A stretch of DNA of 64,000 nt from Patescibacteria group bacterium (GCA_034003985.1 JAVEXP010000002.1:208789-272788), one strand, 5' to 3'; positions 42,642 to 64,000 are shown, numbered from the stretch's first letter. Numbers and translations: made by a program. The notes: generated from the letters alone by a model not told the origin.

Positions 42642-42645
42642 ATTT

Positions 42646-47229: not shown

Positions 47230-49107
47230 ATGAAACAAATAATCAACATAGCGAAGAATAATGTATTCGTTACGCTAGCGGCGGCTGTCGCCATTATTTT
47301 TATCACCGGTCAATTGGGATTCGGCAGTTTTTTAAGTAACCGCTTGGCTTTTGGTTATGGCGCGGGGCTGGGTTATTTGATCCGGCCGTTAATCGGCGTT
47401 AATCAGCCTTTGTTGATTCCGGATTATGGTCGGGAAGGTAGATTGTTTAGGAATTTTGGCAATACCAATGTTGAACTGGAAGTTCCTCCTCATTCAGTCC
47501 AAAGCCAAACTTTGTTTGATGTCAAACAATACAATGTCAGCTCGGCCGATAATGTTTGTGTTGGCAGTGGGGAAATCATCGGCGACAAAGCGTTTACTAT
47601 CGTTGCGACCAACCAGAATGACAATAATGTTAACAGCTTCGGCAATGATTTAACCATGTCGATTACCATGGCCGGTCTGCCACTTGATTCCAGTAATCTG
47701 GGGATCTATTATTTTAACGGCAACCACCAATGGGTGTTTGGCGGTCAGGCAGTTTTTAATATTGAAAACAGTAAAGTCACTTTTCAAACCAAGGACGCCG
47801 GCACTTTTGCCATTATTGAAGCCGCTGGCCTGCCCCGCCTAATTGAAAGTCAGGCGCGTTGTCAGGGCCAGGTTTTGGGTATTAAAGAATATGAAGAGGG
47901 TGCCATTCTGCGGACTTGCGACGCCCAAATGTATGAGATTAAAAATAGCCAGGCTGTCAGTATCGGCCGGTTGGAATTGACCAATCAGAGTTACCAAGGC
48001 AAGCCGGTCAATGATGTTGATTATGAAGTAATTGTTCGTTACACCAAGCCGGGAAGCGGTCCAGAACGCTATAAAGATTTTAACGACGGTGATTTATTGC
48101 GGACTTGCGACTGGAAAATTTATCGGGTGGAAGGCAATGTTTTTCGCCATATTGGCAGTCATACCGAGCTTCAATCAAAATACGAAGGCCAAGTTATTCA
48201 TAATGTTGATTACTGGCAGATTGCCAAATACCGCAATATCGATTACAGCCCTGAGCAGCTCAGCAGTAGTCAGGAGCAACAGGTTCTAGGGGCTAAAACT
48301 TACGCCGAGGGCACGATTCTGCGAACCTCTGATCTTAAAGTTTATGCTATGAAAGACGGTCAGCTGGTTTATCTGCGGGATTTGCCTATGTCTCAGACCA
48401 AATATTTGAATAATCCGATTTTTAATATTACTGATCAGGAATTCCAAGAAATCACGGGAGACACCAATCAGCAGTCAATTTTTGGATCCGATGCTCGGGT
48501 GTTAGGTGTCAAAAAATATGGGGTTGGCGCTTTATTGCGTACCCGTGACTGGAGAGTTTATCAAGTCGAAGTCAACGACCGGATTAGGTATATTACCAAT
48601 TTAGTTACGCCAAACGAGAACACTTATCAGGGTCGGGAAGTAATCGATGTTGATTATGGGGTATTAGCCCATTATGTTTTAGTCAGTGATGATGAGCCGT
48701 TTACCGCCACTACCGGTAAAGTCTTGGGTGCCAAGACTTATGCTGACGGCACTTTAGTTCGTATTGCCGAAGACGGCCGAATTTTCGTAGTCAATAATGG
48801 CAAGTTTAAACACATCGCCACTTTGGACGAATTAACCGAAAATTATCCCGGCGTTAAAGTCATCAATATCACTTTGGCTGATTTCAACTTGGCCCAAGGC
48901 CGTGAGTATACTACCGGCGGTCGGGTATTGGGTGTTAAAAAATATGGCAATAATGTTTTGTTAAAAACACCAGACTGGAAAGTCTACCAAATCACCGACG
49001 GCAAGATTCATCATATCGCCACTATTCCGGGAGCTCAGGATTACTACCAAGGCAAAGAAATCATTAATGTCGGTTATGAAGAATTAGCCCAATACGAAAG
49101 AATTTAA
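47230..49107 (+). CDS. Secreted/anchored protein with six or seven tandem about 55-aa beta-rich repeats
   Basis: N-terminal TM/signal. Repeats of consensus [QRK]VLG[VA]K.Y..G.[LI]LRT.DWK[VI]Y.[VI]..G..[RH]HI......Y.G..VI.V.Y. Confidence 0.6.
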   Translation: MKQIINIAKNNVFVTLAAAVAIIFITGQLGFGSFLSNRLAFGYGAGLGYLIRPLIGVNQPLLIPDYGREGRLFRNFGNTNVELEVPPHSVQSQTLFDVKQYNVSSADNVCVGSGEIIGDKAFTIVATNQNDNNVNSFGNDLTMSITMAGLPLDSSNLGIYYFNGNHQWVFGGQAVFNIENSKVTFQTKDAGTFAIIEAAGLPRLIESQARCQGQVLGIKEYEEGAILRTCDAQMYEIKNSQAVSIGRLELTNQSYQGKPVNDVDYEVIVRYTKPGSGPERYKDFNDGDLLRTCDWKIYRVEGNVFRHIGSHTELQSKYEGQVIHNVDYWQIAKYRNIDYSPEQLSSSQEQQVLGAKTYAEGTILRTSDLKVYAMKDGQLVYLRDLPMSQTKYLNNPIFNITDQEFQEITGDTNQQSIFGSDARVLGVKKYGVGALLRTRDWRVYQVEVNDRIRYITNLVTPNENTYQGREVIDVDYGVLAHYVLVSDDEPFTATTGKVLGAKTYADGTLVRIAEDGRIFVVNNGKFKHIATLDELTENYPGVKVINITLADFNLAQGREYTTGGRVLGVKKYGNNVLLKTPDWKVYQITDGKIHHIATIPGAQDYYQGKEIINVGYEELAQYERI

Positions 49108-49127
49108 ACAATTTTGAAGATAAAAAA

Positions 49128-49150
49128 AGAGGGGTTTAGCCCCTCTTTTT
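49128..49150 (+). terminator. Rho-independent terminator
   Basis: AGAGGGG-TTTAG-CCCCTCT followed by TTTTT. Confidence 0.75.
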
Positions 49151-49152
49151 AG

Positions 49153-49181
49153 TTGACCAGCAAAATTGTTTAATCTATAAT
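49153..49181 (+). promoter_or_regulatory. tRNA-Glu promoter (TTGACC-N17-TATAAT)
   Basis: TTGACC 49153-49158. TATAAT 49176-49181, 12 nt before the mature tRNA 5' end. Confidence 0.6.
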
Positions 49182-49193
49182 AATTATCTGTAT

Positions 49194-49268
49194 GGCCCGT
49201 TCGTCTAGTGGTTAGGACGCCAGGTTCTCATCCTGGTAACGGGGGTTCGATTCCCCCACGGGCTGCCA
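49194..49268 (+). tRNA. tRNA-Glu (anticodon CUC), CCA encoded
   Basis: Manual fold: acceptor GGCCCGT/ACGGGCT (G1-U72), D-arm GTCT/GGAC with AGTGGTTA loop, anticodon stem CCAGG/CCTGG, loop TTCTCAT, T-arm GGGGG-TTCGATT-CCCCC, discriminator G, CCA. Confidence 0.85.
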
Positions 49269-50855
49269 CCGTGCATAAATCGAGGTTAACGCCTCGGTTT
49301 TTGCGTAGGTTGATTGTTTTTCTTTTGGTTCTAACCTTTGATATTCTTTTTCTAACTCTGGATACTTATTTTCAATAATTTGAAACCATTCATAAAGGTT
49401 CACATCTAATTGGCAGTTAAGCAGTTTGTGGTCTTTGCCCAAGGTAACTAATATCTTTCGCTTAGTTGCACAATCTCCCGTGCTAAACCTTGTTCGGGCA
49501 TATGTTGCAAAATCAAAAGTTTCTCGAGTCAGTTCTAACCAATCTTGGCTTTTTTTCTCAAGACTGTTTATTTCACTTTTAAGCTGTAAGATTTCTTCAA
49601 CAAGTTCGCTTTTACTTTTTTTGTATTCATCTTCATCTAGGACTTGGCGAATAAGGAGTTTTTTTAGATTTTCAAGCTGTAATTCCTTGTCCTTTAGCTT
49701 CCGTACCAACTTCTGTTCTTTTTTGAATTGATTATTAACTTCAAGCTCTTGCTCCTCATCTAGTACGTCAAGCGCCCAATTTAAAAATTTTGGCATTATG
49801 GTAATTTTTCCCAACACTGAGTTTACTTGCTCATCAAGCTTTTCTTGCCTAACTGTTTTTCTTTGGGAACAATCAACACCCCTTTTTCTACGAGTGCAAT
49901 TGTAGTAATCATAGTTTTGAAGTTGGTTGGTCTCTTTAATCAACTTAGTCTTTCGTTGAGCTACAATACTGCAACCGCACTCCGCACACTCCATTAAGCC
50001 AGAATAGGGGAAGTTAAACTTTCGTCGTATCTTTTTTGTTGGTCTGTTAAGTAATGCCTGAACTCTATAATACTCATCTAAGCTGATCATTGGTTCATGG
50101 CTTCCCGGATATTCCTCGCCGTTGTAAGTTAATGCTCCCGCATAGAATTTGTTTTTGAAAATCAGGTATAGGCCGCTTTGAGTTAAGGGACGACCGCCTG
50201 TATTTCTTCTTTTAAGAGTGGTAAAACTCCATTCGTTATTAAGCTTGTCTAGAATCTCAGCAACAGAGTAGTTTCCAGTTAACATCAACTTCCAGCACTG
50301 CTGTATTAGCTTGAAGCGTTTTTCATCTTTAACGATAGTATGATTTATGAGATCATTTTTGTAGCCAGAAGGCGGTACTCCTGGCCGCCAACCTTTTTCA
50401 ACTTTACTCCTCATGCCTCGTTTTACATGTTTACTAAGATCTCTGACATATTGATTGGCCATTCCACCTTCAACGCTTAGAAGTAGAGCATTATCATCAG
50501 GTGTATGCTTTTTATCAATGGTCTGTATCTCCTGGATTATGCCGTTTTGCAACAGCCACATGATTTGTCCACTATCAACTGTATTTCTTGATAGGCGGTT
50601 GAAATGCCAACAGAGAATAGCGTCTGCTTTGCCCTCATCAAGCATTTTAAGCATTTCGGTGAAAACAGGGCGTTGATAAGGTGCTTTGGCTGATTTAGAT
50701 TCTTTTAGAATCTTGGTAATTTTCAACCCTTGAATATCAGCCAATCGTTTAAGCTCCTTAATTTGGTCATCAATGGACTGAACTTGTCTTTCTCGTCCTT
50801 CGCTTGATTTTCGAGCGTAAAGGACATACCTCAATTGTTTTTTATTAGTTTCCAT
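49212..50855 (-). mobile_element. Large serine recombinase (integrase). Its 3' end overlaps the tRNA-Glu 3' end.
   Basis: Resolvase catalytic domain YVLYARKSSEGRERQVQSIDDQ (nucleophile Ser). Recombinase domain. Zn-ribbon CAECGCS...YYNCTRRKRGVDC. Long C-terminal coiled coil. Confidence 0.85.
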
Positions 50856-51039
50856 ATTTTAGTGTGTTACATAATTAGTGGTTTCTTTACTTTTACCGTG
50901 TTAAGAAACCTAGACCTTGCACCTCGCCACGATAGGAGAGAGTGGGCTATCACAGAATTAATATAATCTGTTTTTGTGACAAGGTACATTTCTTCACGGT
51001 GGTGGTTAAAAGTAGCTACTATATATAACTACTGATTCT

Positions 51040-52017
51040 TTAACCACCAGAGGGATCAGCTATACTGTAGAGCTTTGCATTCTTTAGGCCGGCTTCACAT
51101 TTGATTGCTCCCTCAGATTCTAGTGATTTCAGAATCTTTTTCAATGTTGAATCGCCAATTTTAATGTCCATTAAATGAAGAAGTTCAAGTATCTCTTTTC
51201 TTTTAATTTGATCATTTTCACTTAGTACTTCAAGAATTAATTTTCGATAGTCGTCCCATGTCAATTTGGTTATTTCTCCCATGTAACGCAACTCTACCTT
51301 ATCGTCTGACTTTACTAACTCTATGCTGAAAGCCTTAATCTCTTCTTCAAACCTATTTTTGCTTTGAGTAATTGTTACTATTTTTTCTTCTCGATTAACC
51401 ATCAAGTGTGAATCTATCGCACCTAGTAAATCGGAGCTGCCACGCATATCTTGGTTACTTGCGCTTTGGTCTGAACCTTTCTTTCGATTGTGATGACAGA
51501 TTATTACTGTAAAGCCGTTAGCAGAAAGCATCCTGTAGCTTTTTAAGACTTGACTCATTTCAACAGCATCATTTTCATTAGCTTGATGAGTCCTTATTAA
51601 CGAATCTATAATAATGACTTTAACACCCCACTTTCGACATTCCGCCATTAAGTTGCTTATCCCGTCTTTTTGAATGTTAAAGCCCTTCAAAGATTTAAAA
51701 TGTATTGGCAGGTTGAAGTCATTAGCCATTAGTCCCATTCTTCTTTGTATTACACGCTCTGGATTTTCTTCGTCAATGACCATGACAGGCATTAGACTTG
51801 TTTCGAACTTACCCAAGAAATTTTGCCCTGAAGCAATGGCAATTGCCATATTATGAAGTATCCAAGTCTTACAGCTTCCTGCATAGCCCGAAACTATGGT
51901 CACAGCATCTAGGGGAACAAGCCCCTCTACAGCCCATTCCAGATCTGGGAATTTCTTGTTCATTAGCTCGGCAAGAGTAATCGTATCGTAGTTAGGTGTG
52001 AAATCAACGTAGTTCAT
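51040..52017 (-). CDS. RecA-fold AAA_25/RepA-like ATPase (island replication/primase-helicase-associated) with C-terminal wHTH
   Basis: Walker A VSGYAGSCKTW. Walker B VIIIDSL. RepA/DnaB-like KaiC-fold core. C-terminal DQIKRKEILELL helix-turn-helix. Confidence 0.7.
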   Translation of the reverse strand: MNYVDFTPNYDTITLAELMNKKFPDLEWAVEGLVPLDAVTIVSGYAGSCKTWILHNMAIAIASGQNFLGKFETSLMPVMVIDEENPERVIQRRMGLMANDFNLPIHFKSLKGFNIQKDGISNLMAECRKWGVKVIIIDSLIRTHQANENDAVEMSQVLKSYRMLSANGFTVIICHHNRKKGSDQSASNQDMRGSSDLLGAIDSHLMVNREEKIVTITQSKNRFEEEIKAFSIELVKSDDKVELRYMGEITKLTWDDYRKLILEVLSENDQIKRKEILELLHLMDIKIGDSTLKKILKSLESEGAIKCEAGLKNAKLYSIADPSGG

Positions 52018-52250
52018 ATTTTTGATTTACTATTAAGCTTTTCAACATCTGCAGATGTAATTGGTTTATAAATTTCCTCAACCATAGTCAGTAGAGTATT
52101 TGCTAACTCTAAAGCAGCTTGATTTGATAATTGCTTGCCGAAAGTATCCGCATAGCACCTCTTGAATTTGTTTAGCTGTTTTTGATTTAACATAAAAATA
52201 CTCACCTGAGTGTGAGTATCATAGCATCCTAGGTTTGCGAAAAGTCGCAC
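52014..52250 (-). CDS. Small hypothetical protein (78 aa), translationally coupled to the AAA_25 gene
   Basis: ATGA overlap with the downstream gene. No motif. Confidence 0.4.
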   Translation of the reverse strand: MRLFANLGCYDTHTQVSIFMLNQKQLNKFKRCYADTFGKQLSNQAALELANTLLTMVEEIYKPITSADVEKLNSKSKI

Positions 52251-52267
52251 TTAGATTAATCTAAGTG

Positions 52268-52969
52268 TCACGTCAACTTTTGATTATACCTACTAAAAAC
52301 TTTTCTAAGATTTTGTTCTATTTTTTTTATCTCTTTATCTGATACATCGTTATCTCCCGCTAATTCTTGAGCAATAATTTCAGCCATTTTTTTGTACGAA
52401 GAAATTTTTTCAATTTTACCTTCCACGATATCTTTAATTCCGTTACGTTTTAAGTCAGTTCCTTCAATGTAAAGATAAAGATTATCTAGTGTTTCTCTGG
52501 TAGTGCGAGGTGTATTAATGTTTGGCCACAATTTCTCTTGTGCATTTTTAATACTTGGCAGAAGAGCATTTTTAACTTCTTCGCTGGTTGTGTGTGCATT
52601 GAATTCGATAATAGCTTTATTTTTTTGAACGCTAATGTTAACAGATTGACTTGGTACAAAAAGTTTTCCAGTAACAAGCCATGTAAAAATATAGGGATTC
52701 CAAAAGCTTCCCAATCCGTATTTTTTGGTTAAGTTGTCTATGTCTGTATCAAATTTATCTAAGTCTTTATTGCCATTGAGTTCAATAAATTTGTTCATGC
52801 TAATAGCTTTTTCACCGTCTCGTAACTGCCATTTTTTATCTATTGCATCAACATCATTACGAAAAGAGCTATTCTCGATGAATAGCCTTGTAAAGATAAA
52901 TAAATTCTTTTCGTATCCGCTTATATCTTTAGGCATACACTCTAAAGTCACCAGAATGACCCTGGTCAC
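52268..52969 (-). CDS. Hypothetical protein (233 aa), island cargo
   Basis: ORF with island-like low GC and no recognisable motif. Confidence 0.45.
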   Translation of the reverse strand: MTRVILVTLECMPKDISGYEKNLFIFTRLFIENSSFRNDVDAIDKKWQLRDGEKAISMNKFIELNGNKDLDKFDTDIDNLTKKYGLGSFWNPYIFTWLVTGKLFVPSQSVNISVQKNKAIIEFNAHTTSEEVKNALLPSIKNAQEKLWPNINTPRTTRETLDNLYLYIEGTDLKRNGIKDIVEGKIEKISSYKKMAEIIAQELAGDNDVSDKEIKKIEQNLRKVFSRYNQKLT

Positions 52970-53052
52970 ATTTTTTTTCTTATTTGTGTATGTTTTATCA
53001 AGGTATGACGGTTTTGTCCAGAGAGGGTGAATAAAGGACTTGAATTACTGGT

Positions 53053-53979
53053 TTAATCAAAAATTTCCATTTTTAAGCTTATAGTGCAATAAGGAGAAGA
53101 AAACACCTGCCGTTTCATATATTGGTCATAAATCTCGACACCATGTTCTTTAGTCCATTCATTTTCTATTAAATCTTTATTTTCTTTTACACCAGTGCCA
53201 TAATCTTCAATATTCCATTCATCTTCATATTTGATTTTATCTTCCTTAAATTCTTTTACTAAAGAACCCGGAAATTTTTTAACTCTACGCATAGGATCAA
53301 GTCGAGAGCTACTATTATGCATAATAATAAAAAATTCTAATACTGTGTTAAATGGAAATATAGAAAACTTATCTTCATCCATAACATCTCCATCGGGCAA
53401 AATTGTATGAAATCCTAGATACTCAGGCCTAATGACTAATGTATTTGAAATGTTATTGTCTTTATATTTTTTATGGTTAATCCATGAAAAAAAGTTTTTC
53501 GTTTCGAAAATATTACCTCTAATTTCTATATCATCAATAAATGTTTTGTAATGATCTGACCAAATTTGTTCCAAATTTGATAGGTGGTTGTAAAAATAAA
53601 CGAACCTAAAAGATTTACCATAAAGACTTTTATCTTCATCAGTATTTAAACTTTTATCTTTTTTTATTTCATTAACGAATTTTTCTGCGGTAGTCTTATT
53701 ATCTTTAGCTAGTTTTTTGATTATCTCGTGCCATTCGGGAGTTATTACAATGTCTAGTTTATAAGAGGGAGTTTTATATTTTTCCGCACCGACTATATCT
53801 ACTACACCAACTTCGTTTTCTACTTTTTTGAGCCGCCTATCTATTGAAAATAACATCCAGTATAAGGCCGCACCGACACCAATTGCCATTTTTGTACCTG
53901 GCGTAAAATCGGCGCTGAGAAAAAATATCACAACAACTATACCGATTGCCCATTTGATTAAATTATTTGATTTTTTCAT
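53053..53979 (-). CDS. Hypothetical membrane protein (2 N-terminal TM helices plus about 230-aa cytoplasmic domain), island cargo
   Basis: TM1 LIKWAIGIVVVIFFLSA and TM2 MAIGVGAALYWMLFSI. The rest is unassigned. Confidence 0.5.
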   Translation of the reverse strand: MKKSNNLIKWAIGIVVVIFFLSADFTPGTKMAIGVGAALYWMLFSIDRRLKKVENEVGVVDIVGAEKYKTPSYKLDIVITPEWHEIIKKLAKDNKTTAEKFVNEIKKDKSLNTDEDKSLYGKSFRFVYFYNHLSNLEQIWSDHYKTFIDDIEIRGNIFETKNFFSWINHKKYKDNNISNTLVIRPEYLGFHTILPDGDVMDEDKFSIFPFNTVLEFFIIMHNSSSRLDPMRRVKKFPGSLVKEFKEDKIKYEDEWNIEDYGTGVKENKDLIENEWTKEHGVEIYDQYMKRQVFSSPYCTISLKMEIFD

Positions 53980-54057
53980 AAGCTATAAACTTTTATTTAG
54001 TTAACACAAAGCCCCACGCTAGCTAGGCCGAAGCCACATGCCCGTTTCCAGACATGA

Positions 54058-54105
54058 CCCAAGATGAGTCGCTGAACGTGGGGTTCAGTATCATCTTGGG
54101 TTTTT
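54058..54105 (+). other. Nested perfect hairpin (10-bp outer stem plus inner 6-bp stem) followed by a T-run, in the divergent promoter region
   Basis: CCCAAGATGA-gtcg-CTGAAC-gtgggg-GTTCAG-ta-TCATCTTGGG-TTTTT. Confidence 0.6.
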
Positions 54106-54247
54106 AGACCATGCCCTGCGGAGCAGAGTTTAGGTCATCTAGATTGTAGGTTAATAATAAAATATTTGCTTAACTTTGTAAATATTTACTTGATTTTTTG
54201 TCCAGAATGTGTAAAAATTATGTTACTAATTTTTAACCCATAATTCT

Positions 54248-54865
54248 ATGTCAAAAGAAAATCAAAAAGATGATCTTGAGGCTGTTAGACTTATTGCTGA
54301 GACCCTTGAGAATTTTTCAGATCAAGAACGTGAAAGGATAATTCGTTGGTCACTAGAAAAACTGGGGACAGAAGCAGGAAGCTTCCCCTCTGTGAAAACT
54401 AGCCCATCTGTGCAAACTGGTGTAGCCGAAATCGTTAATCAAAGTGCCTCGGCAAGTACAAACACAGATATCTTAAAACCAAAAGATATAAAAAGTTTTG
54501 TTGACAGTAAAGATCCAAAAAGTGATAAGGAGTTAGCAGCAGTGGTAGCTTTTTATTACGCGTTTGAAATGCCTGATGAGGAAAAGAAAGAGTCGATTGG
54601 ATCTAAAGATCTAACTGAAGCATGTCGTCTAGCTCAACGTAGACGGCCAAAAGACCCTGCCCAGACTTTAAGAAATTCTGCATATGCTGGTTATCTTGAT
54701 AATATTGAAAGAGGTCAGTATAAGATTAATTCCGTCGGTGAAAACTTGGTGGCCATGATTTTACCAGGCAAGGTTGAATCAACTCAGTTAAAAAACAAAA
54801 AGCCTCGAACAAACACGAAGAAAACACAATCGAAAAGAACTAAAAAATCTTCCAAGCGAAAATAA
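54248..54865 (+). CDS. Hypothetical protein, gene 1 of a three-gene operon (205 aa; Lys/Arg-rich C-terminal tail)
   Basis: ORF with a C-terminal KNKKPRTNTKKTQSKRTKKSSKRK tail (nucleic-acid-binding-like). 7-nt gap to the next gene. Confidence 0.5.
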   Translation: MSKENQKDDLEAVRLIAETLENFSDQERERIIRWSLEKLGTEAGSFPSVKTSPSVQTGVAEIVNQSASASTNTDILKPKDIKSFVDSKDPKSDKELAAVVAFYYAFEMPDEEKKESIGSKDLTEACRLAQRRRPKDPAQTLRNSAYAGYLDNIERGQYKINSVGENLVAMILPGKVESTQLKNKKPRTNTKKTQSKRTKKSSKRK

Positions 54866-54871
54866 AGCTTT

Positions 54872-55687
54872 ATGGATTCACGCATAGATTCTATCAATAG
54901 CGCCATAGAGGAGATAACAAGACTAGCAAAATACCTAAAAGGGAGAAAAACCGTCCAAGTAAAAACTTTGGAAGAGAAACAGGTAATTGCTTCTACGGTC
55001 TACGCATGGATAAATAAACATAGAAAACTTTTTACTCAATCTTCTGGCAGTGCTGATTTAGATAACATAGATCAACTTTATCTATCGGTTTTGAGTCTCT
55101 CTGAACAAAGTGCTACTAGAAAAAAATATAGTGATATATTAAAGCTTCTAAAAAAAGCCTTAATAAGTTTTAGAGAACACATAATATCAAATGTCATAGT
55201 CAATCCTGTATATACCATGCCGGAGTTTTCAAGCTTGGTTGAAGATCAAAAAATGCAATCCATTCTTAAAAAAAGGTGGGACGAAATAAATAGATGTCTA
55301 CAAAATGAAGCATCACTTTCTGCAACCATAATGATGGGGGGAACACTAGAAGCCCTTCTATTGGCAAGGATTAACAAGCTGTCAAACAAAGACCCTATCT
55401 TTAAGTTAAAATCTACTCCGAAAGATGGTAAGACCAAAAAAGCTAAAAATTTATCGGATTGGACTCTCAATGATTATATTAATGTTTGTGCAGAGATGGG
55501 ATGGATAACAGAGCCAGCAAGACAAGTTAGCCAGATATTAAGAGACTATAGAAATATTATACATCCAGAAAAAGAGTACAGAAGTGGTATTAATATAGAC
55601 ACAAGTGATGCGCAGCTCTTTTATCAAATATTCTCACAGTTAACAGAGCAAATAGTTAAGACAAAAAATGATGGAATTACAAATTGA
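54872..55687 (+). CDS. Hypothetical protein with C-terminal HEPN-like domain (Rx4-6H motif), gene 2 of the operon
   Basis: C-terminal all-alpha region ...ATIMMGGTLEALLLARINKLS...LSDWTLNDYINVCAEMGWITEPARQVSQILRDYRNIIHPEKE. The RDYRNIIH / R-N-x-x-H motif is typical of HEPN/DUF4145-type RNases. Confidence 0.5.
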   Translation: MDSRIDSINSAIEEITRLAKYLKGRKTVQVKTLEEKQVIASTVYAWINKHRKLFTQSSGSADLDNIDQLYLSVLSLSEQSATRKKYSDILKLLKKALISFREHIISNVIVNPVYTMPEFSSLVEDQKMQSILKKRWDEINRCLQNEASLSATIMMGGTLEALLLARINKLSNKDPIFKLKSTPKDGKTKKAKNLSDWTLNDYINVCAEMGWITEPARQVSQILRDYRNIIHPEKEYRSGINIDTSDAQLFYQIFSQLTEQIVKTKNDGITN

Positions 55688-56411
55688 AGAAGTTCGGGAA
55701 TACTTAAATAAGTTATCAGGAGGTATTAACAACCACAAAGATGAGCTGTTCTCTTTGCACAAGGAAAACTCTTTTAATAAAAGATTTTCCATTGTTCTTA
55801 GTTCTTTCGAGGATCTTAGTGCTGTAGTAGATCAATTGAGCTTGAATATAAAGGAGTCGGTAGAAGTTGAAAAAGAAATACAGAGAAGGTGGTATAGAGA
55901 AGATAAAGACAAAATAACAAGTGAAGGCCAAAAACTCAGAAAAAAAGCACACAAATTAACGCTGCACTGTCAAAAGGACTTTAAATCTCTCTACATATTT
56001 TCAAAAATTTTTCTTGATAAATACACTAAACTATTTTCTTTCATTACTAAGTGGCGTGGCGTCGGGAATAGTTCAATAACATCATTTTTCAATGATTTGC
56101 TCAAATATGAAGGAGAAAAAAAAGAAATTATTCAATTCAAAGCAGAGTGCTTAAACGGTCTTAAGTCAGTAAACATTTTTTTGACTCAATATCGTGATAA
56201 ATTTGTTGTTCATCATGAAATTAATCAAGTTAACGGTCCATGGTTTATAAACTCAATGAATGGAGATATTAGATTTGTAAACGAAGGCGGTAGACCATCT
56301 GTTACTCCTGTGGAGTTATTGTTCGTAGTAAAAAATTATGTTTCAATTAGCACGAGTTACGTGACGAATTATTGGATTAATGAGTTAAAGGATATAAGTC
56401 CAGGGGTATAA
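55668..56411 (+). CDS. Hypothetical protein, gene 3 of the operon (247 aa); overlaps gene 2 by 20 nt
   Basis: Coupled ORF with no recognisable motif. Confidence 0.45.
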   Translation: MMELQIEEVREYLNKLSGGINNHKDELFSLHKENSFNKRFSIVLSSFEDLSAVVDQLSLNIKESVEVEKEIQRRWYREDKDKITSEGQKLRKKAHKLTLHCQKDFKSLYIFSKIFLDKYTKLFSFITKWRGVGNSSITSFFNDLLKYEGEKKEIIQFKAECLNGLKSVNIFLTQYRDKFVVHHEINQVNGPWFINSMNGDIRFVNEGGRPSVTPVELLFVVKNYVSISTSYVTNYWINELKDISPGV

Positions 56412-56599
56412 ATTTATATAATTGTGGTGTCTAAAAATCTAAACTCCACTTTTTGAGATTACACTTCTAACCAACGAAACCGTGCTCTGCCAGATGAAAA
56501 ATAGTACCAAGCGACCCGAGTGGGCTATTTTAGCGAAATTTTTTTGAGTCATTTTTTAGATTTATCCACAACCCAATAAGGAATAGAACTAAATTATTT

Positions 56600-57454
56600 A
56601 TGTCTTTTGTAAATACACTGCCATACATAAGTAATCCAATTGAAGAATTTAAGGATTATCGTTTTGTAGATTGGGAATCCGGAATATATCCGACATTTAA
56701 AGCCGGCACAGATCCTGAAGAAATACATTTCTTCACTGATTTAATCCAGTCTCAAGGATTACGGAAAATACTTGACCTCGGCGTTGGCGGAGGAGTTGAA
56801 TTGGCAGATATCTGTAAGAATTTAAAGAAATATAATTATCCCGTTGAGTCGATAGAAGCAAATGAGGTTGATGCTACATTCATTCAATTAGCTCATAAGC
56901 ACTTCCAATCTCAAGAATTAAAAATTTTAATCCATAAGGCTAATTGGCTTGACCTTCCAAAAGCTGAGCCACCATACACTCATAACTTTGACTTTGCATT
57001 TTTAACAGGCAATTCATTGACCTATATAGGTGGTGGAACTCGTGAATATACTAAAAGAGCGCAACAATCGGTAGTAAGTAAATTCTCGGGGATGATTGAT
57101 AAGGGTGGCTACTTGTTTATTGATTCTCGTAATTACGATTATATTTATTCTTTGATGAACTTGTCGCGAGAAGAAATCTTTGAAAATTTCACGTTCCCTT
57201 ACAGTATTTATTACCATGGTTTTCAAGAAAAGATTTTGGTTTTTCCTGCCTATATAAGTGACACAGTTGTTGTTTTGCATTATTATGATAAAGAGAAAAG
57301 AGTCTGGAGCAAGCTTGATCTGTACCCGATATACCAGAAAGACATGTTGGATATTTTAAGTAAAGATTTTGAGGTTGAAAAAGTTATCTACGACTTTGGT
57401 AAGGGTTCAAAAGACAAGAGTTTATTCGTTCAGTACTTAGTAAGGAGAAAGTAA
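56600..57454 (+). CDS. Class I SAM-dependent methyltransferase (orphan, island cargo)
   Basis: Motif I ILDLGVGGGVELADI. Acidic motif II EANEVD. FDFAFLTGNSLTYI post-II/motif IV region. Confidence 0.65.
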   Translation: MSFVNTLPYISNPIEEFKDYRFVDWESGIYPTFKAGTDPEEIHFFTDLIQSQGLRKILDLGVGGGVELADICKNLKKYNYPVESIEANEVDATFIQLAHKHFQSQELKILIHKANWLDLPKAEPPYTHNFDFAFLTGNSLTYIGGGTREYTKRAQQSVVSKFSGMIDKGGYLFIDSRNYDYIYSLMNLSREEIFENFTFPYSIYYHGFQEKILVFPAYISDTVVVLHYYDKEKRVWSKLDLYPIYQKDMLDILSKDFEVEKVIYDFGKGSKDKSLFVQYLVRRK

Positions 57455-57499
57455 TCAAGGAAGGGGACCCAAGAATATTTTTTATCGAGTGACCTGAGT

Positions 57500-57524
57500 G
57501 GTTCGATTCCTAAAAAGGCTGCCA
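57500..57524 (+). repeat. Degenerate direct repeat of the tRNA-Glu 3' end (T-loop plus acceptor; 19/25 identical, same spacing). Putative att remnant separating two tandem islands.
   Basis: GGTTCGATTCC-taaaaa-GGCTGCCA versus the tRNA's GGTTCGATTCC-cccacg-GGCTGCCA (49244-49268). Confidence 0.6.
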
Positions 57525-57614
57525 GAACACAATAGTATCGAAGGCTGACCTAAAAGGCTTTTGATTATGAAATAATTACAAAACACGGCGAGTAGCCGTG
57601 TTTTGTAATTTAGG

Positions 57615-58937
57615 TTAATTCCCCAATAATCTGATTTTTTTGTTGGTGTAAATAAGCTTACTTTTCAGTAGCGACAACAGTTCGCGTTTTTCCGAGATAT
57701 TGCCGTTTTGTATTAAATATTTGGCGTACGCTCGTATGTCAATTTTCTTTGTTTCAATTTTATTATGACTTCCGCCAAGTACGGAAGTCTGCAGATTGTT
57801 TAATCTTCTTACCTCGTCTTCAAACTTTCCTTGAACTCCAAGTTGATCTATCTCAACCTTATCAATTGTTTTTGCCAATTCGTTTATGAGCGATTCCTCC
57901 CGAATATAAGTGTTTTTACATTCGGGATTTTTGGCTCTGGTGCAACCGTAGTAAATATATTTGGCGGTTGTCCCGTCAGTCAATTTTTTGAATTTTTCTT
58001 GTCCTGTGATACTGGATCCGCACAGGCCACAAACCATGAGTTTGGTAAAGGCAAATTCTTTGTTTTTGGCGCCGCAGGTTGCTTCAATGGTTTTGATGTT
58101 GACTTGCGCCTGATCGAAAAGTTTTTGAGTGATAATCGGTTTATGTTTGCCCTGATACCACTTGCCGCTGTTTTTTGGGTATTCAAACATGCCGTAGTAG
58201 AACGGGTTTCTCAATAGATTATATATTCCACTCAGTGCCAGTGTTTTTTGACCTCTGGTTTTGAAATTAAGGTCAAACTTCAACCAGTTGTATATTTTTC
58301 TACCACTCCAGCGCTCATTGGCAACTTTTTCAAATATCTGCTTGATTATCGGTGCGCGCAGGGGATCAACGATGATCTGGCACTTCTTATCCATTTGATT
58401 TTGGTTCAGATAGCCCAGGGGTGCCATGCCCGGCCACAAACCCATTTCTACCCTCGTTCTCATGCCTCTTTTGACGTTTTCTCCGCGATGATCGTTTTCC
58501 AGTTTGGCGGTACTTCCCAAAATCATCAGCATGAATTTTTCATTTGGGTTATTGGTGAATGTTTGTCCGTGGGTTCTTATTTCCGCCAACAATCCTTGAT
58601 CCATAAGATCGACTATGGCGCCCAAGTCCCCGGCGTTACGACTTAAACGATCCGGAGCCCAAGTGATGATGCCGTTGAATCTGCCGGTTCTAATGTCACC
58701 CAAAAGCTCATTAAAGATTTCCCGCTGTCCCGTGTCCTTGGCCGAGTGACTTTCCCGTTTGATTTCAACAATGTCCAAATTTTCCCGAACGGCAATATCC
58801 AACATTTCCTTAACTTGGGAATCGATTGACAGCACCTGGCGCTCCTCGGATTCCGTTGATTTTCTCGCGTAAAGGCAGTATTTGATTTTTTGTTCCGGCG
58901 TGATTGCGTTTTCCATACAACAACATTGATGACGCAA
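57615..58937 (-). mobile_element. Second large serine recombinase (integrase)
   Basis: YCLYARKSTESEERQVLSIDSQ catalytic motif. Recombinase domain. Zn-ribbon CGLCGSS...YYGCTRAKNPEC. The likely start is the Met 7 codons into the ORF. Confidence 0.85.
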
Positions 58938-59085
58938 CCCTTTCAGTGAGTCCAGAGTGGGTGAGTAGGTAAACTGTAGATAACTAATTCTGCAATTTTG
59001 GGGTAGAATTTTATTTTTTACGATTGACTTTTATGCCTAAGCGTGGCAAAATAAATAGTATAATGGTCAAAATCAACATAGCGCC

Positions 59086-59910
59086 ATGACTAATAAAAAA
59101 ACAAATCTACCAAAGAATAGTATGCCAACATATTTTTTAGATGGTAATTTTGCTTTGTATCATGGCGATGCTCTTGAAGTATTGTCTAAGTTTAAACCTA
59201 ATCAATTTGATATGGTTTTTGCAGATCCGCCATATAATTTATCTAATGGTGGTTTTTCTGTTCATGCAGGAAAAAGAGTTAGCGTGAACAAGGGTGACTG
59301 GGATAGAAGTAAAGGTTTTAAAGATGATTACGAGTTTCATTTTAAATGGTTAGAAGCATGTAAAAGAATATTAAAACCCGGCGGAACCCTTTGGGTTAGT
59401 GGAACCTACCACTCAATTTACCAATGCGGGCATGCAATACAAGCACTCGACTATCATATTTTAAATGATGTTGCTTGGTTTAAACCTAATGCATCACCTA
59501 ATTTAAGCTGTCGTTTTTTTACAGCCAGTCATGAAACTTTGATATGGGCAAGAAAAGAGAAAAAAGCAAAGCATAAGTTTAATTATGACTTAATGAAAAA
59601 TGGTGAGTGGACAGAAGATTTTATAAAAAAACCCAACAAGCAGATGAGAAGTGTTTGGTCTATCAATACCCCCAGACCAGGAGAAAAGAAATTTGGAAAG
59701 CATCCAACACAGAAACCCGTTGATTTACTGGTTAGAATAATTCTAGCAAGTACTGATAGAGGCGACTTAGTTTTGGATCCATTTACAGGATCTTCCACTA
59801 CTGGTTTAGCGGCGTTTTTAAATGATAGAAAGTTTATCGGCATTGACTCAGAGAAAAAATATCTTGATTTATCTGTTAAGAGACTTAAAGATTTAAAGAA
59901 AAATAAATGA
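59086..59910 (+). CDS. Beta-class DNA methyltransferase (DPPY; N6-adenine or N4-cytosine) of a type II R-M system
   Basis: Motif IV FADPPYNL precedes motif I VLDPFTGSSTTGLAA (beta-class order). 274 aa. Confidence 0.85.
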   Translation: MTNKKTNLPKNSMPTYFLDGNFALYHGDALEVLSKFKPNQFDMVFADPPYNLSNGGFSVHAGKRVSVNKGDWDRSKGFKDDYEFHFKWLEACKRILKPGGTLWVSGTYHSIYQCGHAIQALDYHILNDVAWFKPNASPNLSCRFFTASHETLIWARKEKKAKHKFNYDLMKNGEWTEDFIKKPNKQMRSVWSINTPRPGEKKFGKHPTQKPVDLLVRIILASTDRGDLVLDPFTGSSTTGLAAFLNDRKFIGIDSEKKYLDLSVKRLKDLKKNK

Positions 59911-60824
59911 AGTTTTTGGATTTTTACAAAAAGAAGTTGAATTGTCAGAATGAAGGTGATGTCTTTGATTATTTAATTTCTAATTTGAAACCAAGTAACA
60001 CGCTTTGGTCATATTTTGTTAACTGGGACAAAGTTTTTGAAAATACAAAAAAGATTGAGCTGGCCTTAAACACTTTAAATTATTTGGTTGGAAAAGATGA
60101 TTTTGATAAGGAGTTCAAATTCTTACTTAAACAAAATCCTGAAGTCGCTGAAGTTTTACCGGCGCTAGTTGTTAGAGATGGTAATAATAAAAAGAAATTT
60201 AAGGTTTTAGTTGATTTTCAGGGTAAAAAATTAGTATATGAAGATTTTGATTTCACAAAGAAAAAATTTACTGACAATGATATTAATAAATATTTAATAT
60301 TTGTAAAAAATACTAGAATTAAAGACTTAATTATTTCCAAGAAGATTAAAAATCTAGTTGATTATATGATTGGCGTGGAAGCTGGTTTAGATAGTAATGG
60401 GAGAAAGAATCGTGGTGGTCATGCAATGGAGGACATTGTCGAAGTTTTTATTAAAGATTTATGTAAAAGAAAAAAGTTTAGATATTTAAAAGAAGCTAAT
60501 TCGGATAAAATAAAAAAAGAATTTGGTTATGATGTTCCGGTAGATAAATCTTCAAGACGATATGATTTTGTAATTGACAATGGAAAAGAGCCAATAATTT
60601 TTGAAACTAATTTCTACGGTGGTGGCGGATCTAAGTTGAAGTCTACTGCTGGCGAATACAGAAATCTATTTGATGTTTTAGGCGGTAAATTTAAATTTAT
60701 TTGGATTACGGATGGTTCTGGTTGGAGAACGACTTCCAGGCCATTGAATGAAACATTCAGCCATAATGATTATTTGTTTACACTTTCACTACTAGAAAAA
60801 GATATTTTAGATACTCTTATTTAA
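59907..60824 (+). CDS. Putative type II restriction endonuclease (cognate of the DPPY MTase)
   Basis: ATGA translational coupling to the MTase. 305-aa Lys-rich protein. Family not assignable by eye (DpnII/MboI-like is a guess). Confidence 0.5.
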   Translation: MKFLDFYKKKLNCQNEGDVFDYLISNLKPSNTLWSYFVNWDKVFENTKKIELALNTLNYLVGKDDFDKEFKFLLKQNPEVAEVLPALVVRDGNNKKKFKVLVDFQGKKLVYEDFDFTKKKFTDNDINKYLIFVKNTRIKDLIISKKIKNLVDYMIGVEAGLDSNGRKNRGGHAMEDIVEVFIKDLCKRKKFRYLKEANSDKIKKEFGYDVPVDKSSRRYDFVIDNGKEPIIFETNFYGGGGSKLKSTAGEYRNLFDVLGGKFKFIWITDGSGWRTTSRPLNETFSHNDYLFTLSLLEKDILDTLI

Positions 60825-60911
60825 TCCAAAGAATAATTAAAGTCATCAAGGATTTTTTGCCATATCCTTAATTTTACCGAAATAGATTTATGATATTAAT
60901 AAATTTGGGTA

Positions 60912-63296
60912 ATGAAGATTAGTAGAATAAAAGAAATTAAAAATATTGGCACATTCGCCAAATTTGAGAATGGCGGTTCTTTTGGATTTGAAAAATTAAC
61001 TTTCATATATGGCTTAAATACATACGGAAAGACAACTCTCGCTGATATTTTTCAGTCTTTAAAGCTACACAATCCCTCTTTAATTATAAATCGAAAAACT
61101 ATTCCAGAGATAGCTATTTCTCAGAAGGCAGAAGTATCTGCAAAAGAAACTGATGATGGATCAGAAAAAATTATCAAATTTGAAAATAGCAATTGGATCG
61201 ACAATACAATAGCTAATGATCTAGAGGTTTTTGGAACAGATTTTATTCATAATAATGTATTTACAGGTTTATTGATTGAAAGGAAAAATCGAGAAAATTT
61301 TACGAATTTTATTTTAGGAGATCAGGGGGTTAAATTAGCAGAGAGTATAAAAGAAAAAAAGAAAGTTTTAGGAGATAAAAAAAGAGATCTTCGTAATTAC
61401 ACTCCTGTGTTCGTAAAGAATTTTACCAACAAAGAGATTGAGGAATTTGTTAATTATGATATTAGCAAATTGAATAAAGATGATTTAGATTCAGAATTGA
61501 TTAGGAGTAAATCCCTTTTGCAAAAAGAAAAAGATCGATTAAAGGAGCCAACAAAGATTACCAATATGGATGAGCCAAAATCTTTCGGCTCCATTGATGT
61601 CGATTACATGGACATTATCAACACTATAAATAATTTGTTAGATAAAGATTATCAGGAGATAAAAAAAGAAAGTATAGATATGTTGGACAAGCACATTTCT
61701 AATAATTTTTCTGATGTTGATGGTGCGAAAAATTGGATACAAAGAGGATTAAAATACTGTCTAGATAAAGAAAAAGGAAAGTGTCCATTTTGTAGTCAAA
61801 ATTTAAACAATGTTAAAGATCTGATTGATCTTTACGATTCATATTTTGATAAAGCTTATACAGATTTTATAGACGAAGTTGTTACTGGATTGGACATTAA
61901 TATAAATACATTAAAAAATCGTAATCTAAATAATTATTCAGTAGTTCAATCTGCTTTACTTAAGGCAAATTTATATAAAGATCTAATAATAACTAAAGAG
62001 TATCAATCATATCTACAGAAGCTTATAAGCAATTTATCTCATTTAAAAGAAGATGAATTACAAGAGGAAAAATTCAGAATAGTAGAATCATTTGAAAATA
62101 AAATTTCTAGTAAAATTAAAATTCCATATGAGAAAATTGAAAAACTTGATCCTTCCGATTTCAAGAAAAATTTAGATGAATATAAAATTAATTTAGAGGA
62201 ATGTCGAGATATAGTAGATTCAATACTTACAGCGATTAAGGAATTTAAAAAACAATACAGTAATGTAGTCAGTATCATTGATGCTATAAAAGGTTTGGAA
62301 TCTGATATTCAAGATTTAGAATTTAAAAAAGCTAGATTTGAGCAGAATGATGAGTGTGTAGCCTATAAGAAATTAATCAGCGAAATAGAAAAATTAGAAA
62401 CTGGTGAAGAGGGAATCAAAAATTTGGAAGAAAAATTACAGAAAGATCAAACTGATTTTTTGTCTGACTATTTTGGAAAGATTAATAATTTATTTGTTAA
62501 GTTTGGTAGTAAAAATTTCACTTTAATAAAAGAAGAAGATAGCTCAGGGCACTTACCAGTATATTCGTTGAAAGTGCAATTTCACAATAAACCAATATCA
62601 AATGATAAATTGTGTAATGTTTTTAGTGAGTCAGATAGAAGAGCTTTAGCTTTATCGATATTTTTCGCAAAATTAGAATTGAAAGATAAACAAGAACAAA
62701 ATAAGACAGTCATAATTTTAGATGATCCTATCACAAGTTTTGATGACAACAGGACTACTAATTCAATAAACTATTTTAAAGAGGTTCTTGGTAAAAGTAG
62801 CCAGATGATTATTTTGACACACTATACACATTTTATTAAACGATTTTGTGAAATAACAAAGAAAGATAGTATAACTACGAAGTTTTTAAAGATTGAACAA
62901 AATGAATACTCTAGTTATTTAGAAAATATTACTCGCGAAGAACTAATTATAAACGATTATGAAAAGATATTTATGAAGATTTATAATTTTATCAACAAAA
63001 AAACTTCTGAGAATATAAAAGCAGATTTAAGACCTTTCCTTGAAAATTTATATTTTCCTACAATATTTAGTAAAAAAATACACGATGACAATGTTGACTG
63101 TAGTAACTTAGAGACTATAATTGATGGTTTATTTTCTGACTATGAAGAAGTTAAAAATAAATTTCATGAGTTTAGAAACACTTTGAATCCTGATTCACAT
63201 TTATTCACCTCAAACAATATTGAAGATGTTCGCAATTTTGCAAAGGAAATGTTTGAATATATCTATTCTTTAAGTATAGTAGGCTCGAGAAAGTAA
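60912..63296 (+). CDS. RloC/PrrC-like AAA_13 ABC-ATPase with CxxC zinc hook and C-terminal HEPN-like (anticodon-nuclease-like) domain
   Basis: N-terminus KISRIKEIKNIGTFAKF...LTFIYGLNTYGKTTLADIF (AAA_13 Walker A). Long coiled coil with CPFC. Walker B/D-loop VIILDDPITSFDD, H-loop LTHYTHF. C-terminal FRNTLNPDSH. Confidence 0.65.
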   Translation: MKISRIKEIKNIGTFAKFENGGSFGFEKLTFIYGLNTYGKTTLADIFQSLKLHNPSLIINRKTIPEIAISQKAEVSAKETDDGSEKIIKFENSNWIDNTIANDLEVFGTDFIHNNVFTGLLIERKNRENFTNFILGDQGVKLAESIKEKKKVLGDKKRDLRNYTPVFVKNFTNKEIEEFVNYDISKLNKDDLDSELIRSKSLLQKEKDRLKEPTKITNMDEPKSFGSIDVDYMDIINTINNLLDKDYQEIKKESIDMLDKHISNNFSDVDGAKNWIQRGLKYCLDKEKGKCPFCSQNLNNVKDLIDLYDSYFDKAYTDFIDEVVTGLDININTLKNRNLNNYSVVQSALLKANLYKDLIITKEYQSYLQKLISNLSHLKEDELQEEKFRIVESFENKISSKIKIPYEKIEKLDPSDFKKNLDEYKINLEECRDIVDSILTAIKEFKKQYSNVVSIIDAIKGLESDIQDLEFKKARFEQNDECVAYKKLISEIEKLETGEEGIKNLEEKLQKDQTDFLSDYFGKINNLFVKFGSKNFTLIKEEDSSGHLPVYSLKVQFHNKPISNDKLCNVFSESDRRALALSIFFAKLELKDKQEQNKTVIILDDPITSFDDNRTTNSINYFKEVLGKSSQMIILTHYTHFIKRFCEITKKDSITTKFLKIEQNEYSSYLENITREELIINDYEKIFMKIYNFINKKTSENIKADLRPFLENLYFPTIFSKKIHDDNVDCSNLETIIDGLFSDYEEVKNKFHEFRNTLNPDSHLFTSNNIEDVRNFAKEMFEYIYSLSIVGSRK

Positions 63297-63297
63297 T

Positions 63298-63726
63298 ATG
63301 AAACAAGATAATTTGATTGGAATTGGTAAATATAAAAAAGAAATAACCATTTCTGAATCAAAAGTAATTGAGGCGGTTAGAGATTGGGCATATAAAAATT
63401 GTTGGGGATTAAGGCCTATTATTAAACATGGCCATAACCCCGGTGTTGATTTAGAATTAACAAATGAAAAAACAAGACATAAGTATTTTATTGAATGCAA
63501 GGGTGGATCACATCATGAGGTAAATTTTGTTTATTCCTTAGGTCAAATAATTACCCGCATGAACCGCGTCCCTAAAGGGGTAAATTATGGAATTGCATTG
63601 CCGACGAAATCAGCAGAAATTGCCAGACGAAGGATCCCTAAAGGTTTTGCCACAAGAAATAAGCTGACCATTTTTTCAGTTTCTAACGATGGTAGAGTTC
63701 GGAGATATACACCAAAGGATTTTTGA
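63298..63726 (+). CDS. Small protein with PD-(D/E)xK nuclease-like motif, coupled to the RloC-like gene
   Basis: Start 1 nt after the RloC-like stop. GVDLEL...YFIECKG is compatible with hD...ExK. Confidence 0.45.
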   Translation: MKQDNLIGIGKYKKEITISESKVIEAVRDWAYKNCWGLRPIIKHGHNPGVDLELTNEKTRHKYFIECKGGSHHEVNFVYSLGQIITRMNRVPKGVNYGIALPTKSAEIARRRIPKGFATRNKLTIFSVSNDGRVRRYTPKDF

Positions 63727-63817
63727 TATAAGTAAAACTTATTTTATTTGAAATATACCAGTAGGTAACCTGTAGGTAACTCAGACTTCGCAAAAACCCT
63801 AACCTAAGCTAATATAC

Positions 63818-63842
63818 GATGGACATTTGTCCATTTTTTGGT
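63818..63842 (+). terminator. Rho-independent terminator
   Basis: ATGGACA-TT-TGTCCAT followed by TTTTTT. Confidence 0.6.
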
Positions 63843-64000
63843 TAAAATGTAATTGACAATTAAGTGACCTAAACCCGTCGTTTTCGGCGGGCATGGTCAA
63901 AAATCGTAAGAGACATACAACCCGTCATTCAGGGCGTGAGTTACGTTATGCAGGGAAACTTGCATAGGGGCTTTAAAACCCTCCTGGTGGCGGGCTTTAT

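Follow-up and report, generated by a model that had tools for sequence, protein, structure and literature searches.

Genes and the repeated tRNA end at the locus

We analysed a stretch of 64,000 nucleotides (nt) from a Patescibacteria group bacterium (GCA_034003985.1, JAVEXP010000002.1:208789-272788), referred to here as the window, and in particular its part from position 49194 to the end. An original prediction, made from the sequence alone, had described this part as two elements bounded by serine recombinases and inserted at a tRNA-Glu gene. The part begins with that tRNA gene and holds two adjoining units, each of which carries a gene for a large serine recombinase (LSR): Rec1 in unit 1 and Rec2 in unit 2. 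We consider it probable that these units are two independent integrative elements, each with its own LSR, lying in tandem at the 3' end of tRNA-Glu(CTC). The tandem model is based on the anatomy of the locus, on independent contexts of unit 2, on contig boundaries and on a family-wide association with tRNA genes. The features at and around the junctions are listed here, with lengths of proteins in amino acids (aa).

49153-49181: promoter-like TTGACC-17-TATAAT ahead of tRNA-Glu
49194-49268, plus strand: tRNA-Glu(CTC), the proposed attachment target (ARAGORN; Rfam tRNA, 63 bits)
49261-49268, plus strand: left copy of the 8-nt common core GGCTGCCA, nt 69-76 of the tRNA and putative crossover region of unit 1 (attL1)
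49269-57524: unit 1, proposed integrative element, 8,256 bp including the right core copy
49281-49302, plus strand: terminator-like hairpin CGAGG-TTAACG-CCTCG followed by T5, directly 3' of tRNA-Glu
49212-50855, minus strand: Rec1, large serine recombinase, 547 aa as integrated, with Resolvase, Recombinase and Zn_ribbon_recom domains
57490-57524, plus strand: right end of unit 1, resembling the 3' half of a tRNA (ACCTGAG..GGTTCGATTCC..) and closing with the second copy of the core, GGCTGCCA, at 57517-57524; junction of both units
57519-57559, plus strand: conserved left arm of unit 2, 41 nt, CTGCCAGAACACAATAGTATCGAAGGCTGACCTAAAAGGCT, present in five other contexts
57525-64000: unit 2, the part inside the window
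57615-58916, minus strand: Rec2, large serine recombinase, 433 aa from the ATG at 58916 (open frame to 58937), with the same three domains as Rec1

According to ARAGORN and Rfam, tRNA-Glu(CTC) is the single tRNA gene in the 64-kb window. It is intact, its CCA is gene-encoded, and it is the insertion site that the original prediction had named as tRNA-Glu(CUC). Its last 25 nt recur at 57500-57524 with equal spacing and 20/25 identities; the location and spacing given in the prediction held, and its count of 19/25 did not. Two exact blocks, GGTTCGATTCC and GGCTGCCA, enclose a diverged 6-mer. This was the sole match to the tRNA end at 17/25 or better on both strands of the 64 kb, and 20/25 was reached in 0/30 shuffled controls. 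A chance match was rejected, since the window holds no other such copy and no shuffle attained its score. A strict pattern of T-loop, 12 nt and CCA had two matches in the window, the tRNA end and the copy at 57500-57524.

Both recombinases lie on the minus strand and are LSRs by domain content, as had been proposed. PF00239 was matched at 1.5e-21 in Rec1 and at 4.8e-21 in Rec2, together with PF07508 and PF13408 in each, and both proteins matched the PHROG 95 integrase family (3.7e-74 and 5.2e-66, respectively). They share 34% identity over 362 residues. In public assemblies Rec2 starts at the ATG at 58916. No Phage_integrase (tyrosine recombinase) domain was found in any open reading frame (ORF) of 49-64 kb, and a tyrosine-type mechanism was rejected because the region has no tyrosine recombinase.

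Rec1 does end inside the tRNA, as originally described: the 3'-most 57 nt of its ORF are the reverse complement of the 3' part of tRNA-Glu, and the codons past W533 (14 residues and the stop) are antisense tRNA. When position 57524 was joined to 49269 in silico, the result was a Rec1 of 533 aa ending in ...ARWQPF*, which is the form predicted for the excised unit. Relative to that form, integration swaps the final F for 14 tRNA-antisense residues, VGESNPRYQDENLAS, giving 547 aa. The hairpin directly behind the tRNA gene is supplied by the element and lies antisense inside Rec1 codons (...KTEAL...). One DNA stretch, 49281-49302, is both a terminator-like sequence for the tRNA and coding sequence for the recombinase. 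The G+C content falls from 0.42 in the host part to 0.35 (unit 1) and 0.33 (unit 2).

Unit boundaries and proposed order of integration

An exact lookup of Rec2 from its ATG returned an ENA contig (L007), and the same lookup from a TTG start gave no match. L007 corresponds to window positions 62018-57519 at 99.9% identity. Past 57519 it carries 546 nt that are not in the window, comprising tRNA-Thr, rpmG and a complete tRNA-Trp(CCA). This tRNA-Trp (...CCCCTGCCA) is joined directly to unit 2 (GAACACAATAG...), with identity to the window beginning exactly at CTGCCA, position 57519. An exact-pattern scan with 32 nt from CTGCCA found the same tRNA-Trp junction in metagenomes of the Joint Genome Institute (JGI; L090), where the left end is 99.9-100% identical. 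In another contig (L092), whose Rec2 is 90% identical, the 41-nt arm has one mismatch and directly follows a tRNA-Trp of different sequence, with a NUDIX gene between arm and recombinase. Two further copies of the arm do not adjoin a tRNA. In a 180-kb JGI contig (L091, 387-427) the arm stands after the end of an unrelated ORF and before a ClpP/SDH-type protease gene, and in L093 (5143-5190; Rec2 92% identical) it follows non-coding, non-tRNA DNA. These may be secondary sites, attP forms or further tandem junctions.

All unit 2 contexts have (C/G)CTGCCA at the junction, with 6 nt constant, and the arm comes after it. Therefore, the left end of unit 2 lies at or inside CTGCCA (57519-57524). The usual target of unit 2 appears to be the 3' end of tRNA-Trp; tRNA-Glu and the tRNA-Trp of L007 agree at 24 of their last 30 nt, which makes tRNA-Glu a plausible alternative site. 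Unit 2 proteins occur in at least four other assemblies. At tRNA-Trp the unit stands without unit 1 (L007, L090, L092), and unit 1 genes are absent from those assemblies. A search of viral contigs with the junction and unit 1 arm sequences returned no matches.

These contexts bear directly on whether the region might be one composite element, starting at 49269 and integrated once by Rec1, in which Rec2 and the 25-nt similarity are internal and have no att function. The single intact tRNA, the low G+C content that is continuous over both units and the fact that the far end of unit 2 was not seen are all compatible with such an element. However, unit 2 occurs alone at tRNA-Trp elsewhere, with identity from the core onward and no unit 1 genes beside it, and Logan contig ends fall at both core edges. 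We find a composite element hardly credible on this evidence.

Records of unit 1 proteins are limited to the source contig and a single Logan assembly, SRR25572339, and an exact lookup of full-length Rec1 gave no match. In the Logan assembly unit 1 forms a single contig (L006), which covers window positions 49239-57546 at 100% identity. Logan contigs are built from a k=31 graph. Position 49239 is the start of the first 31-mer containing 49269, and 57546 is the end of the last 31-mer containing 57516; the graph therefore branches right after the left GGCTGCCA and right before the right GGCTGCCA. An alternative path into unit 2 must share the GG at 57517-57518 and differ at 57516 (xGGCTGCCA, where x is not A). 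The GG fits tRNA-Glu (..CGGGCTGCCA; ...ACGGGCTGCCA) but not tRNA-Trp (..CCCCTGCCA). The simplest reading of these contig ends is that the SRR25572339 sample would also hold tRNA-Glu joined directly to unit 2, in which case unit 1 would be a discrete insertion with an 8-bp common core. Unit 2 was seen without unit 1, and unit 1 without unit 2 was not observed. The contig L006 and the presence of unit 2 at tRNA-Trp elsewhere both support the originally predicted succession of elements in tandem at one att site.

The original prediction had taken the copy at 57500-57524 for a degenerate tRNA end. This corresponds to the classical geometry of tRNA islands, in which the crossover would lie in or upstream of the T-loop, 49244-49268 would have been supplied by the element, and 57500-57524 would be the displaced and decayed end of the tRNA. 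The locus does have the look of a tyrosine-integrase island, in that it adjoins an intact tRNA 3' end and its far boundary bears an imperfect copy (20/25), and a perfect 23-nt repeat from T-loop to CCA in a related element (L060, described below) is compatible with this geometry. Several observations speak against it. The five mismatches are clustered within 6 nt between two perfect blocks, although the element around them has flanks that are 100% identical between assemblies. The classical geometry predicts a graph branch at 57499/57500 and not at 57516/57517. L007 differs from the window in exactly this 6-8-nt stretch, which is hence not unit-2-borne. Finally, no tyrosine recombinase is present. 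A displaced tRNA end is thus most unlikely. Since unit 2 does not supply this stretch, the T-loop-like block and TAAAAA belong to unit 1. The copy is best read as the probable attP arm of unit 1, imitating the 3' half of a tRNA, and not as a decayed duplicate.

We infer, rather than observe, the exact crossover position, the insertion order and any present-day activity. The crossover of unit 1 would fall within the shared GGCTGCCA, that is, within at most the final 8 nt of the tRNA. An exchange confined to this length would leave the tRNA as essentially all host DNA and would make the last 14 codons and the stop of Rec1 host-encoded. The attP of unit 1 would form by joining of its ends, with the mimic of a tRNA T-arm and acceptor 3' strand (57490-57516) as left arm, GGCTGCCA as core and the 3' end of the Rec1 gene as right arm. 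Recombination by Rec1 with the tRNA's own GGCTGCCA would leave the tRNA unchanged, place an element-borne terminator behind it, and lengthen the 533-aa Rec1 to 547 aa by exchanging the final F of the excised form for 14 residues encoded by the host. Unit 2 (from 57519/57525, ~11 kb in other assemblies) would use the 41-nt arm starting CTGCCA, normally at tRNA-Trp and here at tRNA-Glu. The junctions predicted by the tandem model are ...ACGGGCTGCCACCGTGCATAAA for attL1, ...CCTAAAAAGGCTGCCAGAACACAAT for attR1/attL2, ...CCCACGGGCTGCCAGAACACAAT for the form free of unit 1 and ...CCTAAAAAGGCTGCCACCGTGCATAAA for the circular attP1.

Most likely, unit 2 arrived first and was later separated from the tRNA by the insertion of unit 1, so that the site between the units would be a chimera of unit 1 arm, core and unit 2 arm. 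If the order were reversed, unit 2 would have entered the right junction of a resident unit 1, using arm and core as a pseudo-attB. Two facts suit this reversed order: the unit 1 arm retains the T-loop block and CTGCCA, and in L091 and L093 the unit 2 arm follows non-tRNA sequence ending in CTGCCA, indicating that Rec2-type elements tolerate varied left half-sites. In contrast, the end of L006 at 57546 implies that the same sample also has the unit 2 arm preceded by xGGCTGCCA with x not A. This fits tRNA-Glu joined to unit 2, a form that either an earlier arrival of unit 2 or a precise excision of unit 1 would produce. The newest element of a tandem array also normally lies beside the tRNA. 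We therefore regard entry of unit 1 before unit 2 as unlikely.

Recombinase families and related systems

Rec1 has at least 1,264 homologues at ~45-51% identity, and the named ones are mostly from Patescibacteria. One genome per GTDB species yielded 403 relatives, of which the best 80 loci were examined. The residues of the YxRxS serine motif are invariant in 25 Rec1-family sequences (Y13, R15, K16, S17) and in 26 Rec2-family sequences (Y16, R18, K19, S20). An opposite-strand tRNA was present at the 3' end of the recombinase gene in 61/80 loci, and in 60 the recombinase frame overlaps the tRNA. The overlap is 12-129 nt long, except for 315 nt in L070, and is a multiple of three in 58/60, so that CCA is read as Trp. 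A near-invariant Trp near the C-terminus of the family is this antisense CCA, and a conserved ..SN.. is the antisense of the T-loop. The overlapped tRNAs represent ten specificities (Trp 13, His 13, Asn 11, Gln 11, Ser 5, Met 2, Ile 2, Asp 2, Glu 1, Lys 1). Of the 19 loci that lack a tRNA, six stop at a contig edge, and several others (L030, L044, L064, L083 and more) have beside the gene a bare mimic of T-arm, acceptor and CCA without a tRNA body, comparable to 57490-57524, which is the form expected of an attP or of an internal tandem junction. After the CCA, the family consensus is a hairpin and then a T-run, GAGGC.AAAGCCTC..TTTTT, antisense in the ...KTEAL... motif (59 loci).

A complete 886-kb chromosome (L060, OZ246416.1, 3290-11660) carries at tRNA-Asn an element of 8.3 kb, whose exact repeat of 23 nt runs from T-loop to CCA. 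This element also encodes a homologue of the unit 1 protein of 78 aa and has a LOOT RNA (both described below), and is the best complete analogue of unit 1. Its far repeat copy is followed by an apparent native tRNA terminator.

Matches to the Rec2 family number at least 8,000 among those listed and are common in IMG/VR contigs, where 15/69 copies have an opposite-strand tRNA no more than 3 kb from the 3' end of the gene. Six IMG/VR contigs have two Rec2-family genes each (3300000970_000154, 3300014205_009253, 3300042286_000458, 3300014208_000734, 3300032737_000190 and 3300009873_002614), which suggests that stacking of such elements may be common. The second recombinase of L024 was also weighed as a tandem array, and its junction sequence was uninformative.

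Several observations weigh against the tandem model or parts of it. Neither the junction free of unit 1 (tRNA-Glu to unit 2, CCCCCACGGGCTGCCAGAACACAATAG) nor the circular attP junction was seen in any read or contig. The host Logan contig (L005, window 37230-49240) stops 28 nt before the tRNA end, which indicates a further graph branch inside the tRNA (nt 17/18 or 47/48) that the model does not account for. The right end of unit 2 was not seen in the source genome. No directionality factor was identified, and nothing indicates present activity of either element. A scan of 59 attL sites for dyad symmetry detected no crossover centre, only the T-arm and the terminator hairpin. The right end of unit 1 also has few parallels: an exact repeat of the 8-nt core at the far end was seen 5 times in related loci vs 6.4 expected, and the strict tRNA-mimic pattern had 0 matches in 592,660 nt of element-side sequence, so the recognisable right end of unit 1 is atypical. 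The core that unit 1 shares with the tRNA is 8 nt, and most relatives of Rec1 are without a long far-end repeat; a far-end copy of the tRNA end is clear only in L060 among 59 related loci. Far-end direct repeats are not a general trait of the Rec1 family.

The units were compared with several known systems. In staphylococci, the staphylococcal cassette chromosome elements (SCC, including SCCmec) are integrated at the 3' end of rlmH/orfX by the large serine recombinases CcrAB or CcrC. The likeness would extend to LSR-driven integration into the very 3' terminus of a housekeeping gene that is conserved and stays functional, to a short core, to composite or tandem arrays with imperfect site copies, and to variable cargo. 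The present units differ in having a tRNA and not a protein gene as target, one recombinase per element, a Rec1 gene extending across the putative attP core into the target, and hosts among the Patescibacteria. The integrases of Bxb1, phiC31 and A118/LI have a Resolvase, Recombinase and zinc-ribbon architecture, small att sites and a short core (8 bp in Bxb1). Rec1 and Rec2 resemble them in this three-domain architecture, and would also do so in small att sites with a short core and in attP and attB half-sites that are partly alike. To our knowledge, however, the model serine integrases have protein-coding or intergenic targets, do not carry attP inside their own coding sequence and do not mimic a tRNA arm. 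In mycobacteriophage BPs and its relatives, which have a tyrosine integrase, attP lies inside the repressor gene, and its role in integration-dependent immunity has been demonstrated. Here too attP would lie inside a coding sequence, so that integration changes the C-terminus of a protein, but the gene is that of the recombinase itself and a regulatory role is a possibility only.

Islands with tyrosine integrases at tRNA genes also stack in tandem; for example, IME_Sag2603_tRNAlys, an integrative and mobilizable element (IME), adjoins a decayed integrative and conjugative element with a chimeric internal att site (PMC5704250). Serine-recombinase IMEs, according to the same review, usually disrupt dispensable genes instead of targeting tRNA 3' ends (PMC5704250). 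The tRNA-Glu locus resembles such tRNA islands in having a recombinase gene beside the tRNA, insertion at the 3' end, different recombinases stacked and a chimeric site between them (PMC5704250). It differs in that the recombinases are of the serine type and the identity segment is 8 nt only, with no long direct repeat. By these comparisons, the nearest analogue in mechanism would be the SCC elements at rlmH, and in choice of target the tyrosine-integrase tRNA islands.

Targeting of tRNA 3' ends is classically a habit of tyrosine integrases, and here a very large serine-recombinase family does so systematically, on at least ten specificities, in Patescibacteria with their small genomes. The unusual points are the specialisation of an LSR family on the 3' ends of tRNAs, an attP core in the last codons of the recombinase's own gene, an arm that mimics half a tRNA, and a terminator supplied by the element. 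In the part of the literature that was covered, we found no description of tRNA-targeting serine recombinases in Patescibacteria (also known as the Candidate Phyla Radiation, CPR) and no published description of the Rec1 family. Since the recombinase frame terminates within the tRNA, the sequence next to the gene directly reveals the att sites. The family thus offers hundreds of natural pairs of recombinase and attB that differ mainly in the tRNA end recognised, of use for the evolution of LSR specificity and as a source of integrases, and the targets of such integrases are present in nearly every genome.

Cargo genes and LOOT RNAs

The remaining features of the two units are as follows.

51040-52017, minus strand: AAA_25 RepA/helicase-primase-like ATPase with a C-terminal winged helix
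52014-52250, minus strand: 78-aa protein with no family match, conserved beside Rec1-family genes
52268-53979, minus strand: two ORFs (233 aa and 308 aa) without family match, the first genes downstream of the unit 1 LOOT RNA
54013-54146, minus strand: unit 1 LOOT RNA (RF03000; Rfam)
54182-54154: promoter-like site before the unit 1 LOOT RNA
54248-57454, plus strand: four-ORF cargo operon of unit 1 (205, 271, 247 and 284 aa)
59086-60824, plus strand: type II restriction-modification pair, N6_N4 DNA methylase (PF01555, 2.6e-56) and DpnII-family endonuclease (PF04556, 1.3e-86)
60912-63726, plus strand: AAA_13 ATPase of 794 aa (60912-63296), then a 142-aa ORF
63856-63993, plus strand: unit 2 LOOT RNA (RF03000; Rfam)

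The RepA-like replication genes that had been assigned to unit 1 are represented by the AAA_25 helicase-like ATPase, with a putative role in replication of the excised unit. The 78-aa protein, which is encoded next to and upstream of the recombinase gene in 43/80 loci, is a candidate excision/directionality factor or regulator. The cargo operon had been labelled a HEPN operon, and for this we found no support: the 271-aa ORF (54872-55687) matched no HEPN profile at a cutoff as lenient as E<=1 (Pfam, NCBIfam, PADLOC), and the Rx(4-6)H-like string RDYRNIIH is its sole visible HEPN-like trait. The methyltransferase proposed for 56600-57454 (284 aa) is represented by a weak match to class-I S-adenosylmethionine (SAM)-dependent methyltransferases only. 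The cargo named for unit 2 was found, the restriction-modification system as the methylase and endonuclease pair, and the gene labelled RloC-like as the AAA_13 ATPase, which along its whole length matches PDC-S06, a candidate defence protein of PADLOC (3.9e-193). The AAA_13 protein had no relatives in viral contigs. In annotation, the region would count as two islands with restriction-modification and candidate defence genes and not as core genome.

As had been foreseen, unit 2 runs beyond the window, and two contigs (L002 and L164) show its continuation. They encode a 353-aa NERD/PDC-S11-like protein (the PDC-S11 match is weak), which in L002 starts ~50 nt downstream of the unit 2 LOOT RNA, a zinc-ribbon protein, a 189-aa helix-turn-helix protein resembling a terminase small subunit, and two more DNA methylases. 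These genes are followed by ~540 nt of non-coding DNA (540-630 nt in ENA assemblies) and, in L164, by tRNA-His (353-428) and a host FAD-oxidoreductase gene. Another contig (L162) stops exactly at ...GTCACGCCA, 92 nt ahead of tRNA-His; L164 and L162 are from ENA (ERZ27252299 / ERZ27252301). Tentatively, ...GTCACGCCA in L162 is the right end of unit 2, and the element would then span ~11.1 kb between tRNA-Trp and tRNA-His. The composite with L002 and L164 suggests that unit 2 of the source genome would end ~4.6 kb past the window at ...GAGTTGTCACGCCA, as in L162 and L164. The further tRNA-end repeat for which the original prediction had suggested a search past the window did not appear, as the 3,060 nt added by L002 contain no match of 17/25 or better.

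A LOOT RNA occurs once in each unit (71.6 and 71.2 bits, with a gathering threshold of 46.4), and Rfam also detects it in L002 and L060. We built a covariance model from these sequences, refined it once and searched the 80 Rec1-family loci. The RNA was present in 18/80; in 16 it lies on the element side only, and L029 and L036 have one copy on each side of the recombinase. In an alignment of 23 sequences, which was itself fitted to the model, 93% of cells are paired and 30/34 pairs change on both sides, with 0/500 shuffles as high. A same-strand ORF lies at most 90 nt past the RNA in 16/19 hits having an ORF call. This ORF encodes a 510-675-aa DPPY-type DNA methylase in eight loci, and elsewhere a membrane, secreted or unknown protein; in unit 1 it is the 308-aa ORF, which starts 34 nt downstream. 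The only paper found to list LOOT is its discovery paper, which gives no function, and we found no relevant literature on LOOT function. LOOT resembles a leader or regulator that acts on the operons carrying the cargo of such mobile elements. An orphan RNA is thereby placed in mobile elements, at the heads of cargo operons.

A broader interpretation, which we offer as speculative, is that a Patescibacteria-wide LSR clade took over the niche of tyrosine integrases at many tRNA CCA ends, by means of a tRNA-mimic attP with its core in the recombinase's own last codons. Integration might then act as a built-in switch, as it would change the C-terminus and set the gene head-on against a strongly transcribed tRNA, with a terminator in ...KTEAL..., and LOOT would be a conserved leader or regulator of the cargo operons.

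Outside the two units, a stretch of 55-60% G+C at 32165-35416 (plus strand) stands out from the rest of the window, which is roughly 40%. It is neither rRNA nor a foreign island; it is the gene for a 1,083-aa surface protein with bacterial Ig-like/HYR repeats.

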